A stretch of DNA of 64,000 nucleotides, taken from contig JABAAT010000038.1 in NCBI GenBank assembly GCA_014238615.1, positions 78,363 through 142,362 on the forward strand, in the 5' to 3' direction. Positions within the stretch are counted from its first letter, which is position 1; the number at the start of each line of letters is the position of its first letter. Source of the stretch: Gammaproteobacteria bacterium (GTDB lineage: Bacteria > Pseudomonadota > Gammaproteobacteria > Porifericomitales > Porifericomitaceae). Below, in pieces: positions 4,427 through 64,000 of the stretch. The position numbers were made by a program, and so were the translations under genes. The notes below the pieces were generated by a model. The model made no database searches, was not told the origin of the DNA, and was given only the letters and a program-made list of their open reading frames with translations.

Positions 4427-5413
4427 TCAGCCTTGCGCCGCCGCGACGCGCCGCCGCCAAAGCCCACGCAGACGGCCCGGCAGGCTCTCCAGGCCGTCCG
4501 GAAGGAAACGCATGCTGAGGAGCAGGATCAACCCGTAGATGGCCGGACGCCATTCGTCATACTGGCGGAAGATCTCGTTCAGAACAGACAGCACCACGAC
4601 CCCGATGACAGGACCGGCGAAGGTGCGGGTGCCGCCGATAATGACCCAGACCAGTATGTAGAGCATCTCGCCGATGGCAAACTGGTTCGGATTGATGCTG
4701 CCCAGGTAGTGCACGAAGAGGGCGCCCGCGAGGCCGGCGAAGAAGGCCCCGCAGGCGAAGGCCAGGGTCCGATAGCGCCAGCTGTTCACACCCACCGCCT
4801 CGGCCAGGGAGGGCTGCCAGTGCACCATGTGCAGGGTCAGACCGATGCGCGAGTGCTCCAGGCGATAGAGCAGCAGCAGGGAGACACAGGTCACGACCAG
4901 GAGCAGCAGGTAAAAAGGGATCGGCTCAACGAAGGACAGGGGCTGCTCCAGGAAAGGCAGTTGCAGCTCCAACGGGGGGATCAACTTCAGGCCCTTGGGG
5001 CCCCCGAAAGGATAGACAAAGTACTTCCAGGCCAGGCGGACGGCCTCGCCGGCGGCGTAGGAACCGATGAGGAAATAAAAACCCCGCATGCGCAGCAGCG
5101 GGAAACTGAGCAGCAGGGCGACGGCGGCGGTCAATAAAGCCGCCAGCGGTATGGACAGCCAGACGAGGAGGTCGGCGCGCTTGCTCAGCAGGGCGCTGGC
5201 ATAGCCGCCGCAGCCCATCAGCACCATGTGTATCAGCGACCATTCACCGCTTAGGGTCACGAGGCGGTAAGAAACCACCAGCATCACGTCCAGGAGCAGG
5301 AAAATCATGAAGTCCTGCCGGTGAAATGGCAGGAAGAAGGGCAGCGCGGCGAGCGCGGGCAGCAGTACCGCCGCCGCCAGCCACCAGCCGTGCCGGCGGG
5401 AGGCGCTATTCAC
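4427..5413 (-). CDS. HAAT-family ABC transporter permease (LivM/UrtC-like)
   Basis: Polytopic membrane protein with LivM-type conserved segments (GGYASALL..., INPNQFAIGEMLYILVWVIIGG). Confidence 0.8.
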   Translation of the reverse strand: MNSASRRHGWWLAAAVLLPALAALPFFLPFHRQDFMIFLLLDVMLVVSYRLVTLSGEWSLIHMVLMGCGGYASALLSKRADLLVWLSIPLAALLTAAVALLLSFPLLRMRGFYFLIGSYAAGEAVRLAWKYFVYPFGGPKGLKLIPPLELQLPFLEQPLSFVEPIPFYLLLLVVTCVSLLLLYRLEHSRIGLTLHMVHWQPSLAEAVGVNSWRYRTLAFACGAFFAGLAGALFVHYLGSINPNQFAIGEMLYILVWVIIGGTRTFAGPVIGVVVLSVLNEIFRQYDEWRPAIYGLILLLSMRFLPDGLESLPGRLRGLWRRRVAAAQG

Positions 5414-61342: not shown

Positions 61343-62023
61343 TCAGGCCACTTCACGCACGCCCCGGCTCCCGGCGACCAGCAACAAATCAGCCGGACAA
61401 CTCACGAACAGACCGTGACCGACCACCCCCGGCAGCCGGTTCAAACGCTCTTCCAGTTCCAGCAGGGAGCGGCCGGCGCAGCCATGCAAGTCCAGGATCG
61501 GGTGACCGTTGTCGGAGAGAAAATCGCGGCGCCATTCGGGCCGCAGGCCCCAACCCGTAAAGCGCCGGGCCGCCAGGCCGCGGGCCAGCGGCAATACTTC
61601 CACCGGCAGGGGCCGACGCAGGGCCAGCGCCTCCACGAGCTTACCGTCATCCAGAATGCAGAGAAAGCGATCCGCAGCCTCGGCCAGGATCTTCTCACGC
61701 ACCATCGCGCCTCCGCCGCCCTTCAACAGATGCTTGTGCGGATTGGCCTCATCGGCACCGTCTATGTACAAAGGCAACCGATCGACCTGGTTCAGCTCCA
61801 GCACCTCGATACCCAAGGCGCACAGGCGCCGCTCGCTGTTCAGGGATGCCGCGACCACGCCACGCAGGCGGCCGCGTACACTCCCCAGGGCCTGGATCAG
61901 GCAATCCACCGTGCTGCCGCTGCCCACGCCCAGCACACCGTCAAACGGAAGGTGACTAAGCGCGGCCTCGGCCACCCGCTGTTTCTTTTCTTCCTGTGTC
62001 ATGCAAGAGCCGACGCGCCGCAC
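61343..62023 (-). CDS. rpiA: Ribose-5-phosphate isomerase A
   Basis: LGVGSGSTV...YIDGADE...KGGGGA motifs. Confidence 0.8.
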   Translation of the reverse strand: MRRVGSCMTQEEKKQRVAEAALSHLPFDGVLGVGSGSTVDCLIQALGSVRGRLRGVVAASLNSERRLCALGIEVLELNQVDRLPLYIDGADEANPHKHLLKGGGGAMVREKILAEAADRFLCILDDGKLVEALALRRPLPVEVLPLARGLAARRFTGWGLRPEWRRDFLSDNGHPILDLHGCAGRSLLELEERLNRLPGVVGHGLFVSCPADLLLVAGSRGVREVA

Positions 62024-62177
62024 AAACGGGACGCCGCCAGCCTCCCGGATTTTACTATAGACGATCCCAGGGTCTTACCACGCGGCGTTTCCCACGGGCC
62101 GACCCGGGGCCGGGAACACCCAATGCCCCGGCCGCACCGGGGGGGAAACGGCACCACCCCGCTTCCCGGGCAACCCT

Positions 62178-63552
62178 CTTGAAGAAGCAGGAAAACTCGA
62201 AGCTGCATTGCCCGCACTGCCGGGCCCTCCTATGGGCGAACAAAGAGTTGCTGACCGTTCGCCAAGTGCGCTGCGGCCGTTGCCACAAAGTCTTTGACCC
62301 ACTACAGCAGCTGACAACGGCTTCCCCCGCCGCGCCCGCTCCGCCCCCGGACACGGTGGCGCGGGTCATCCCGAACGACGCACAAAGAGCGGAAACAGGT
62401 CGAGACTGCTCCGGGGAAGAGGGCCTATGGGCCGAGAACAACGCGCCCACCGCGCGCGACGCTCCCCAGGCGCTGAGTCCCGCACTGGAATTCCTGGTCG
62501 GGAAATTGCAATCCCGCGTCTCGAACATAATGCAGAATTCCACGCGGCCCGACCGGGACAGCCACACCTCCGGCGGTCACGCACCGGCGGAGCACGCCCC
62601 CGGCGTGGGCAGCCCTCCCTCGACGCGCGATGACTCCGGGGCGCCGGAAATCCCGTTCTCCACTCCGGACACGGGCCTGGAACAGCCCATGCTGTCGGCT
62701 GCTCCCAATGCCGCAACCGCCGGCGACACCATGTTCACCGCTATCCCCACACGCGCTTCGCCCGGCGCGGACGCCCCGTCCTCCGCCCCCCGGGAGGACG
62801 CGGCCTGGGAGGATCGCTCGCCGCCCCAGGGCGTGGGCCCCTCCCCACACCCGCCCAAGGCTTCGTCCACCGCCACCATTACACTCGCACCGTCCGTGGC
62901 AAACATCGTCCGAGGCTACTCACCCACACATCAGGACGCCGCGCCCGAGACTACCGCAACCATCGAAGCTCCGGCCGCTGCTCCAGGAGACCCGGCACCG
63001 CCCCGCGCCGCACCGCATGGAAAAACGGAGCTTCCCGATATTCCCATCGCCCTGTTGGAAGAGCTGGAGGCCCCGGCGCCATCCCGGCGCTTCGCCTGGA
63101 CCTTGCTCTGCTTCCTGCTGCTACCCGCCCTGCTGCTGCAAATCGCCTGGTTCAATCGCAACATCCTGGCGGCCAGAGTGCCGGGCGCGCCGGTCTGGCT
63201 GAGAAGCCTGTGCCGCGAAATAGACTGTCAACCGCTGCGCGAGGATTTCCTGGACAAGCTGCGCATACTGCAGCGTGATGTACGCAACCACCCCTTCCGG
63301 GCCGATATCCTGCTGGTCAACATCCTTTTCCGCAGCGACGCGACAGGCAGCATCCGCTACCCCGCCCTGCGCCTGGTGCTGCGTGACGAGGCTGACCGGC
63401 CACTCCACGTTTACGATCGTACGCCCGGCGCATACCTCGGCGATCCGATCTGGGATGAAGCCGGGCTACGGCCGGGACACCCGGTGCACGTTCTGCTGGA
63501 ACTGCCCGCCCCGAAGCAGGATATCCTGAACTACGAACTGTCCTTCCTTTGA
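62178..63552 (+). CDS. Zinc-ribbon (MJ0042-type) plus DUF3426 membrane protein with a long Pro/Ala-rich linker; start uncertain
   Basis: CPHCRALLW...RCGRCHKVFDP zinc ribbon, proline-rich low-complexity region, TM helix (FAWTLLCFLLLPALLLQIAWF), C-terminal DUF3426-like domain. The ORF-track start (61996) overlaps rpiA, so a TTG near 62178 is more plausible. Confidence 0.55.
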
Positions 63553-63577
63553 ACGGCACGCACGGGAGCCGTCCCAA

Positions 63578-63921
63578 ACACGGGAGCTAGCCGTTACGTT
63601 AAGTGTTGATGGCCTGGAATCCAAGCCGCCAAGTGTTTTTCACTACCAACGGAGGTTAAAATGATGCGAATCTGGAATAGATCCAGCCAAGATGAAGAGC
63701 GGGGGCGGTTGGAGCGGGAACTACGGTGGCTACTCGATAAGATGAGGGAGAAATCCAAACTGTTGAGACAAAAGGCCGCGAACTTGAAGGCCTTCTTGGA
63801 CAGGTAGGCAACCAAGGGCTCCACCAAGCGCGGCGGAGAGCAGCAGAGTGCCGACCCCAACCCCTGAAACCGGCTGTTGCAAAAAAGCATCAACACTTAA
63901 CGTAACGGCTAGACACGGGAG
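63578..63921. mobile_element. Miniature inverted-repeat transposable element (non-autonomous): 25-bp perfect terminal inverted repeats, 9-bp flanking direct duplication, ~50% GC interior
   Basis: Left inverted repeat 63587-63611 (ctagccgttacgttaagtgttgatg); right inverted repeat 63888-63912 is its exact reverse complement. The 9-mer acacgggag occurs at 63578-63586 and 63913-63921, directly abutting the inverted repeats. No transposase inside. Confidence 0.55.
63661..63807 (+). CDS. Small ORF (48 aa, predicted helical/coiled-coil) inside the miniature element
   Basis: GGAGGT RBS 7 nt upstream of the ATGATG. Translation MMRIWNRSSQDEERGRLERELRWLLDKMREKSKLLRQKAANLKAFLDR*. Below the ORF-track length cutoff. 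Confidence 0.35.
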   Translation: MMRIWNRSSQDEERGRLERELRWLLDKMREKSKLLRQKAANLKAFLDR

Positions 63922-63930
63922 CAACACAAC

Positions 63931-64000
63931 TTGAAATCCCAGGAAACGGAAACTGAAGTCGTCATCATCGGCGCCGGACCCTGCGGGCTGTTCCAGGTCT
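63931..64000 (+). CDS. FAD/NAD(P)-binding oxidoreductase (thioredoxin-reductase/ferredoxin-NADP-reductase-like), N-terminal fragment running off the window end
   Basis: TTG AAA TCC CAG GAA ACG GAA ACT GAA GTC GTC ATC ATC GGC GCC GGA CCC TGC GGG CTG, reading ...VVIIGAGPCGL (GxGxxG Rossmann start). Confidence 0.35.
   Translation, partial: MKSQETETEVVIIGAGPCGLFQV

Follow-up and report, generated by a model that had tools for sequence, protein, structure and literature searches.

A 326-bp element lies near the right-hand end of a 64,000-nucleotide (nt) stretch of contig JABAAT010000038.1 from a gammaproteobacterium (the window). The element is very probably a non-autonomous MITE (miniature inverted-repeat transposable element), which lacks a transposase of its own and is probably mobilised by a family of approximately 2-kb insertion sequences (ISs). 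Its length falls within the class (approximately 50–600 bp) and it contains no transposase gene, the sole frame open in both of its subfamilies being a 48-amino-acid (aa) open reading frame (ORF). It is bounded by terminal inverted repeats and by a target-site duplication that is fixed in length and differs in sequence between insertions, and its ends are homologous to those of autonomous ISs, with which it also has this duplication length in common. The features of the element, its surroundings and the related ISs are listed in Table 1.

Structure of the element

Analysis with a repeat finder showed that the two arms of the inverted repeat are 25 nt long, 100% complementary, and separated by 276 nt. 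With up to 3 mismatches allowed, the 25-mer occurs at these two sites only in the 64-kb window, and it gave 0 matches in 100 shuffles. An exact 9-bp direct repeat flanks the element at both ends. The guanine-plus-cytosine (GC) content of the element is 52.8%, compared with 66.4% in the 2 kb upstream and 62.5% in the whole window. The perfect repeats, the 9-bp duplication, the GC content lower than that of the flanks, and the reading as a non-autonomous, IS-related insertion had all been put forward in the original prediction, made from the letters of the window, and all of them are upheld here: the element is found as three independent insertions with different 9-bp duplications, and its repeats show homology to the repeats of the 2-kb ISs. 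A C follows the 9-mer on both sides of the window copy, so that a duplication of 9 bp and one of 10 bp are indistinguishable at this locus. The partial third copy of the 9-mer that had been pointed out 8 nt upstream of the left duplication (CACGGGAGC) is real and recurs in every assembly of the window locus.

Copies at three loci

Contigs carrying the element were retrieved from European Nucleotide Archive (ENA) assemblies of one sample series by exact look-up of the 48-aa product. One of them (L001) is the window locus, identical across 5340 nt. At the second locus (L002), the identical 326 bp, save for one C-to-T change, occupies positions 4927–5252 with the duplication AGCGGTGCA on both sides; this site, also represented by contig L004, has a TraG/DtrJ-like conjugation gene pair on one side and a cold-shock gene on the other. 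The third locus (L005–L008), reached through the subfamily B protein P0003, holds a diverged copy of 330 bp (subfamily B, the window copy being subfamily A), which is flanked by a tRNA-synthetase-like gene and by a DUF6134 gene and has the duplication GCGCGCGCC. In L005 the right duplication is followed by a G, which sets the duplication length at 9 bp and not 10. The three insertions have three unlike 9-bp duplications. An alignment of subfamily A to the 330-bp copy was obtained over the whole element, and comparison of the inverted repeats revealed that the subfamily B repeat (CTGGCCGTTACATAAAGTGTTGATG) differs at 3 positions, with every change mirrored in the opposite arm.

The three loci occur in contigs of the same samples, in contig-level assemblies that include no closed genome. 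Their tetranucleotide compositions correlate at r = 0.91–0.92 (window, L002, and L005), against 0.53–0.73 between these loci and unrelated ones, and this shared signature indicates that the three copies probably reside in a single genome or in sister genomes. In three further assemblies of the window locus the contigs terminate 30 or 55 nt into the element, which is typical behaviour of assemblers at repeats. An empty site, proposed earlier as a check, was not found at the window locus, where every assembly with the DUF3426 gene either holds the element or breaks within it. The original prediction had named a single copy with no related IS as the outcome that would speak against it; further copies and related ISs were found.

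In contig L004 (positions 1932–2258), which represents the L002 site in another sample, the flanks are 99.94% identical to those of L002, and the element differs by 4 substitutions and 1 indel. The substitutions all fall inside the ORF, and two of them are subfamily B states, which suggests either gene conversion or exchange between copies, or a mixing of copies in the assembly. Under either account, more variants of the element exist.

Searches of wider collections were made with the ends of the element. The exact 18-mer of the inverted repeat had no match in 185,579 GTDB representative genomes, and its one match in JGI metagenomes was a chance match in AT-rich DNA. A relaxed 17-base pattern, loosened where the inverted repeats differ between subfamilies, gave 39 matches in the GTDB genomes, of which 38 were chance matches and one (contig L044) was real, and 3 matches in viral contigs, all by chance; a blastn search of plasmids with the element gave no match. 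The end pattern that covers the variation between subfamilies is CT[AG]GCCGTTAC[GA]T[TA]AAGTGTTGATG. The family is rare, being known from one metagenome series and one metagenome-assembled genome (MAG).

Two observations concern the surroundings of the additional copies. The TraG-like and DtrJ-like genes (L002 2120–4668) adjoin the second copy, which thus lies at the margin of a conjugative element of the host. In L005 (10342–10386), a motif of approximately 17 nt (CTTCCGAAGTATATTTC) occurs three times with 14-nt spacing upstream of the DUF6134 gene, approximately 90 nt beyond the subfamily B element.

Insertion sequences with related ends

Contig L044, which is 1.9 kb long and comes from a gammaproteobacterial MAG, contains at positions 329–367 the sequence CTAGCCGTTACATAAAGTGTTGATG together with 14 nt of the right subterminal sequence of the MITE. 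Some 440 nt farther inward, and on the same strand, a truncated gene encodes the C-terminal third of a large protein, P0005. Homologues of P0005 include P0006, a protein of 645 aa that stems from the metagenome series in which the MITE occurs, and P0007, which has 609 aa and is encoded in a Burkholderiales MAG. Full-length homologues, 34–44% identical and all annotated as "hypothetical protein", emerged from a tblastn search of PLSDB plasmids with P0007; the plasmids belong to Acidovorax, Pseudomonas aeruginosa, Polaromonas, Trichlorobacter, Marinobacter, and Rhizobium. In three of these plasmids (contigs L062, L059, and L063), long inverted repeats bracket the family gene and delimit autonomous ISs of 1.9–2.05 kb, each with one ORF of 578–614 aa.

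The repeats of these ISs align blockwise with the MITE repeat (AGCCGTT / TTAAG / TG.TG) at an equal offset from the tip. When each IS repeat was shuffled 5000 times, the observed score was reached 0 times for L062, once for L059, and 14 times for L063. The duplication flanking the L062 element is a clean 9 bp (GCTTGATCT). For the L059 element an empty site is available, since two small Pseudomonas/Stutzerimonas plasmids (L066 and L067) contain the uninterrupted sequence ggccctgtatcgctacagg, located in a hairpin loop; this unoccupied site in related plasmids identifies the 2-kb unit as a true insertion. On the basis of these sequences, the 2-kb units appear to be an IS family that the NCBI pipeline leaves without a name.

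Table 1. Positions of the element, of its flanking features in the window, and of the related insertion sequences
Feature	Position	Strand	Description
Miniature element, subfamily A	63587..63912	+ (set by the small ORF)	326 bp; perfect inverted repeats and 9-bp duplication
Target-site duplication, left copy	63578..63586	none	ACACGGGAG; sequence reading and repeat finder
Target-site duplication, right copy	63913..63921	none	ACACGGGAG; includes the GGGAG that serves the downstream gene as ribosome-binding site
Terminal inverted repeat, left	63587..63611	+	CTAGCCGTTACGTTAAGTGTTGATG; aligns with the repeats of the ~2-kb ISs in L062, L059, and L063
Terminal inverted repeat, right	63888..63912	-	Exact reverse complement of the left arm
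Shine-Dalgarno-like GGAGGT	63651..63656	+	4 nt ahead of ATG 63661 and 7 nt ahead of ATG 63664; identical in subfamily B
48-aa ORF	63661..63807	+	MMRIWNRSSQDEERGRLERELRWLLDKMREKSKLLRQKAANLKAFLDR; stop included; only frame open in both subfamilies
Native partial repeat	63561..63569	none	CACGGGAGC; target-region sequence, outside the element
Upstream host gene, zinc-ribbon/DUF3426 protein	62179..63552	+	Pfam PF11906, E = 1.7e-24; gene call in L001
Downstream host gene start (TTG), pyridine-nucleotide-disulfide oxidoreductase-like	63931..64000	+	Runs beyond the window; L001 5271-6341, Pfam Pyr_redox_2/Pyr_redox_3
IS of Marinobacter plasmid NZ_CP152381.1	L062 1376-3418		2043 bp; repeat CAAGCCGTTTACCTTAAGTGGTGCTGGCTT; arms match at 29/30
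IS of P. aeruginosa plasmid CP136985.1	L059 2327-4338		2012 bp; repeat GCAAGCCGTTCGCTTAAGGTGTTGAAA; arms perfect, 27
IS of Rhizobium phaseoli plasmid NZ_CP013583.1	L063 1418-3305		1888 bp; repeat CCCAGCCACTTACTTAAATGTGGAATCG; arms perfect, 28

Further members of the protein family were observed in other settings. Homologues in L058 (2654–4219, Acidovorax pEP1), L060 (1447–3219, Polaromonas JS666), L061 (1468–3240, Trichlorobacter), and L049 (6001–7830) have no detectable inverted repeats; their neighbours are parAB, an AAA protein, an N-6 DNA methylase, or an SNF2/methyltransferase island, and they may be domesticated copies or pieces of larger elements. A distant homologue with approximately 25% identity lies in an Enterococcus faecalis plasmid (NZ_CP110291.1, L064 1453–3264) between IS1216 and the trimethoprim-resistance gene dfrG. 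Homologues of this type are also present in approximately 100 other plasmids of Enterococcus, Staphylococcus, Listeria, and Lactococcus, where they are occasionally named "insertion element protein"; approximately 20 of the matches listed have the same statistics (24.7% identity, equal coordinates). In addition, a 42-nt segment located just 3' of the P0006 stop codon (L048 4367–4408) recurs in L044 (239–280) as the reverse complement with 98% identity, where it sits 50 nt outside the MITE-type inverted repeat. Possibly this segment marks an end of a P0006-type element, or a binding site within one.

Proteins of the putative parent family

All of the family proteins tested match approximately the first 80 positions, comprising a zinc finger and a helix-turn-helix, of the NCBIfam model of the IS1 transposase, with E values from 1e-5 to 2e-10. 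These matches score 25–41 bits, where the cut-off is 100, and are confined to model positions ~8–109 of 199. P0007 scores 29.8 bits against a cut-off of 28 with NF050000, the model of the IS1/IS1595 N-terminal zinc-binding domain, and the other members score 18–24 bits. The Pfam domain Zn_ribbon_InsA gave weak matches in 5 of 9 members; no Pfam domain was found in P0006 and P0007. As judged from these models, the parent family is IS1-like at its DNA-binding end, and its scores on the curated model lie below the threshold for IS1 membership. A literature search on ISMhu11 and the IS1 family returned nothing relevant. In the family alignment, the acidic motifs DRQ..VNW, DQDSG, and SLHxVDRFF..RR are conserved, and they could form a catalytic triad of the DDD/DDE type.

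These features suggest a scheme for the movement of the MITE. A transposase supplied in trans by a P0006/P0007-type gene elsewhere in the cell would bind both 25-bp ends, cut the target with a 9-bp stagger, and insert the element, after which repair of the stagger would yield the 9-bp duplication. The source of the transposase would be a ~2-kb IS with a single protein of ~580–645 aa, whose N-terminal zinc-finger/helix-turn-helix resembles InsA of IS1. Presumably the element would move by either a cut-and-paste or a copy mechanism. No gene of the P0006/P0007 family is present in the window or at the other loci that bear the MITE, and mobilisation in trans is what we infer from the related ends and the common duplication length.

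Several observations weigh against this assignment. No autonomous copy with an identical inverted repeat was found in the searches. The sole family gene that adjoins a MITE-type repeat, in L044, is truncated and lies on a contig of 1.9 kb, the structure of which is unclear, and the 4.7-kb contig that encodes P0006 in the same metagenome as the MITE (L048) has no recognisable inverted repeats. The duplication length is ambiguous in L059 (7 or 9 bp) and in L063 (8 or 9 bp). Comparison of the MITE interior with the sampled ISs and proteins by hhalign, tblastn, and blastn revealed no similarity beyond the inverted repeats; the element may have arisen by internal deletion of a parent or by the capture of unrelated DNA between two ends. 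The placement of all three MITE loci in a single genome is drawn from composition and shared samples. The remaining ~450 aa of the family proteins, the putative catalytic part, had no match in Pfam or among PDB sequences, where a profile search gave zinc fingers only, and AlphaFold2, given an alignment of 3 sequences, produced an unusable model of P0007, with a predicted local distance difference test (pLDDT) score of 35. As the catalytic part is unmatched and the model is unusable, the term "transposase" rests on the architecture of the elements, the IS1-like N-terminus, and one empty site.

The small open reading frame

The interior of the element contains the 48-aa ORF that had been predicted, preceded by a Shine-Dalgarno-like GGAGGT. 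The earlier description of this start region was accurate as to the motif and inaccurate as to its spacing: a distance of 7 nt from ATGATG had been given, and the first of the two ATG codons is 4 nt away, the second 7. A full HMMER pass through 1.84 billion representative proteins retrieved with the peptide only P0003, the 82-aa product of subfamily B (72% identical), and a spurious repeat protein (P0004), and a word-indexed protein search returned nothing but the ORF itself. No match to the peptide was found in Pfam, PHROGs, or PADLOC. The suggestion of a toxin/antitoxin-like peptide was not borne out, the element having a single ORF, no partner gene, and no match to a known toxin or antitoxin family. 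AlphaFold2 predicted one helix over residues 2–47 with a pLDDT of 91. The possibility that the ORF is the N-terminus of a transposase was considered and dropped: hhalign, tblastn, and blastn detected no similarity to the family, and the orientation in L044 is also contrary to it.

Alternatively, the element could be a mobile cassette that delivers this 48-aa helical peptide, for example as a regulator of transposition or a coiled-coil partner. We regard this account as possible and somewhat doubtful; it is compatible with the MITE mechanism, and the question it raises is whether the ORF is functional. Comparison of the two subfamilies provides its main support. Subfamily B retains GGAGGT, the ATGATG start, and at least 46 open codons despite 25 differences in the central 63 nt, and no other frame is open in both subfamilies. 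Within the ORF there is a single indel, which spans 3 nt and keeps the frame; those beyond the ORF are 1 nt. A hydrophobic/arginine stripe along the helix (R16, L17, R19, L21, R22, L24, and L25) is preserved, five of these residues through synonymous codon changes, and the L004 variant has 3 synonymous changes versus 1 non-synonymous change. The confident helix model is a further point in favour, and in all three loci the ORF is oriented toward the next downstream gene, although with n = 3 this is not significant.

The substitution pattern tells against selection on the peptide, with a ratio of non-synonymous to synonymous substitution rates (dN/dS) of 0.57 overall and, in the variable centre, proportions of non-synonymous and synonymous differences of pN 0.40 versus pS 0.39. 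In simulations, the frame remained without a stop by chance with a probability of 0.23–0.29, at least as many synonymous codons arose with a probability of approximately 0.17, and both together with a probability of approximately 0.05–0.06. The stop codon is lost in subfamily B, whose ORF, at 82 aa, extends into the right inverted repeat; its downstream frame differs from that of subfamily A. Also unfavourable to a delivered peptide are the restriction of its homologues to the two MITE subfamilies among the proteins searched, the lack of a match in the domain, phage, and defence collections named above, and the lack of a promoter-like site in window positions 63300–64000; besides, ORFs are common in MITEs and mostly of unknown significance (PMC10969869). 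The statistical evidence for protein-level selection on the ORF is marginal, and the conservation of the ORF exceeds, although not convincingly, what would readily arise by chance. That the ORF is translated and functional is accordingly put forward here only tentatively, as the less probable outcome. Within the non-autonomous MITE that we favour, it may be a passenger or a leftover, and it may be translated into a single-helix peptide. It is somewhat unlikely that two propositions hold jointly, namely that the ORF is a translated small protein carried as cargo and that the parent is an IS family missed by annotation pipelines (approximately 2 kb, with a ~600-aa protein combining an IS1-like zinc finger and an uncharacterised catalytic region, and 9-bp duplications).

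Insertion site and possible effects on neighbouring genes

The element is intergenic, inserted 34 nt past the stop codon of the DUF3426 gene and 18 nt ahead of the start of the oxidoreductase gene, both of which are on the same strand. Translation signals of the oxidoreductase gene are left intact, because the right duplication keeps its GGGAG ribosome-binding site. The insertion moves any upstream promoter 335 bp farther from this gene, and since the element lies between the two genes, a transcript derived from upstream must read through it. Such RNA would hold a 25-bp perfect stem. A search of window positions 63300–64000, which include the element, detected neither a promoter-like nor a terminator-like site, and the outward promoter that the original prediction had entertained finds no support there. 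Searches of Rfam gave no relevant match for the element even at E <= 10, and none across the whole window.

These features bear on a second alternative, in which the element works mainly as RNA, its read-through hairpin stabilising, terminating, or modulating expression of the genes on either side; such a role has been proposed for other bacterial MITEs. The predicted fold of -128 kcal/mol (z = -5.1), with the full inverted-repeat stem closing it, the close same-strand spacing to both genes, and the retained ribosome-binding site are in keeping with such a role. The z-score is nevertheless uninformative, because any element with perfect inverted repeats folds in this way, and the absence of a terminator-like site and of an Rfam family speaks against the proposal, which we judge to be quite unlikely.

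A third possibility, an origin from an IS of the IS4 family (IS10/IS50-like), is very improbable. This family was suggested by termini of 5'-CT together with a 9-bp duplication, properties given for it in the ISfinder family tables, and the terminal CT and the 9-bp duplication are what is seen of it in the element. Every autonomous element found with related ends, however, encodes a ~600-aa zinc-finger protein with no match to DDE_Tnp_1, the homology of the repeats to those of the P0007-family ISs is statistically supported by the shuffle control, and the window and the MITE-bearing loci contain no relative of either kind of transposase. The IS4/IS10 origin was rejected once the related ISs encoding zinc-finger proteins had been found.

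That the element is not mobile at all, being a chance or local palindrome whose flanking 9-mers come, as the original prediction had itself considered, from a tandem repeat of CACGGGAGC, has virtually no probability: the third partial copy 8 nt upstream lends it some colour, whereas the local repeat does not explain the flanks, because the same element stands at two further loci with unrelated flanking 9-mers, no match of the 25-mer is expected by chance, the repeats have homologues at the ends of bona fide insertions, one of them with an empty site, and the additional copies refute it.

Two further observations concern the upstream gene. A mechanical ORF of 518 aa with a GTG start (window 61996–63552) overlaps rpiA on the opposite strand; the called DUF3426 gene encodes 457 aa from position 62179. 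The nearest relatives of the DUF3426 protein, besides itself, have approximately 32–33% identity across approximately a third of its length, which points to a poorly sampled host lineage.

Comparison with known mobile elements

The element resembles bacterial MITEs that a co-resident IS mobilises in trans, such as the Acinetobacter element MITEAba12, which is paired with ISAba12 (PMC6382973), and the Coxiella element QMITE2 (PMC10969869), in being small, non-autonomous, bounded by terminal inverted repeats, and intergenic. MITEAba12 has a 9-bp duplication and a size of 113 bp (PMC6382973), and QMITE2 has duplications of 7–9 bp and inverted repeats of 23–29 bp (PMC10969869). A 9-bp duplication and inverted repeats that match those of an autonomous IS are common to all of them. 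The present element is larger than MITEAba12 (326 versus 113 bp), and, unlike in both of these cases, its matching ISs belong to another family and are annotated as hypothetical proteins, with no autonomous copy having identical ends found. Its movement is inferred from sequence.

The occurrence of an ORF in such an element had been called unusual, which is at odds with the ORF-bearing MITEs already described, namely ERIC, large BOX elements, QMITE1, and the Anabaena MITEb and MITEe (reviewed in PMC10969869). As in those elements, the short ORF found here has no database homologue or known function; unlike theirs, it has its own strong Shine-Dalgarno sequence and start, which are kept in a diverged subfamily. 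It is also free-standing, whereas Rickettsia palindromic elements are in-frame insertions in host genes.

The putative parents have in common with the IS1 family an N-terminus of the InsA type, with a zinc finger and a helix-turn-helix, and like that family they give 9-bp duplications. IS1 makes duplications of 8–9 bp, is approximately 0.77 kb long, and has two short ORFs that are joined by frameshift. The parents differ from it in having a length of approximately 2 kb and one ORF of ~600 aa, and their inverted repeats (C-A-AGCCGTT...TTAAG...TG) are unlike the ends of IS1. Mobile insertion cassettes (MICs), of the IS231/IS4 group in Bacillus cereus, consist of IS ends around full-size passenger genes with no transposase. 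The element is like MICs in that its IS ends surround an ORF other than a transposase; MICs belong to another IS family, and the passenger status of the 48-aa ORF is putative.

Significance

The element is one more bacterial MITE, and the chief use of recognising it is correct annotation: it accounts for the 48-aa gene call and for the repeat-induced contig breaks in these metagenome assemblies. Two points are somewhat new. One is a probable parent IS family that has no name in public annotation, where RefSeq lists its products as "hypothetical protein"; the other is an ORF conserved, if not convincingly, beyond what chance would readily account for. Naming the IS family would improve the annotation of mobile elements in plasmids of Pseudomonas, Marinobacter, and Rhizobium, and might extend to the distant homologue beside dfrG in Gram-positive resistance plasmids. 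With an ORF and a ribosome-binding site that are kept in a diverged subfamily, the element also offers a tractable test case for whether the ORFs of MITEs ever function.

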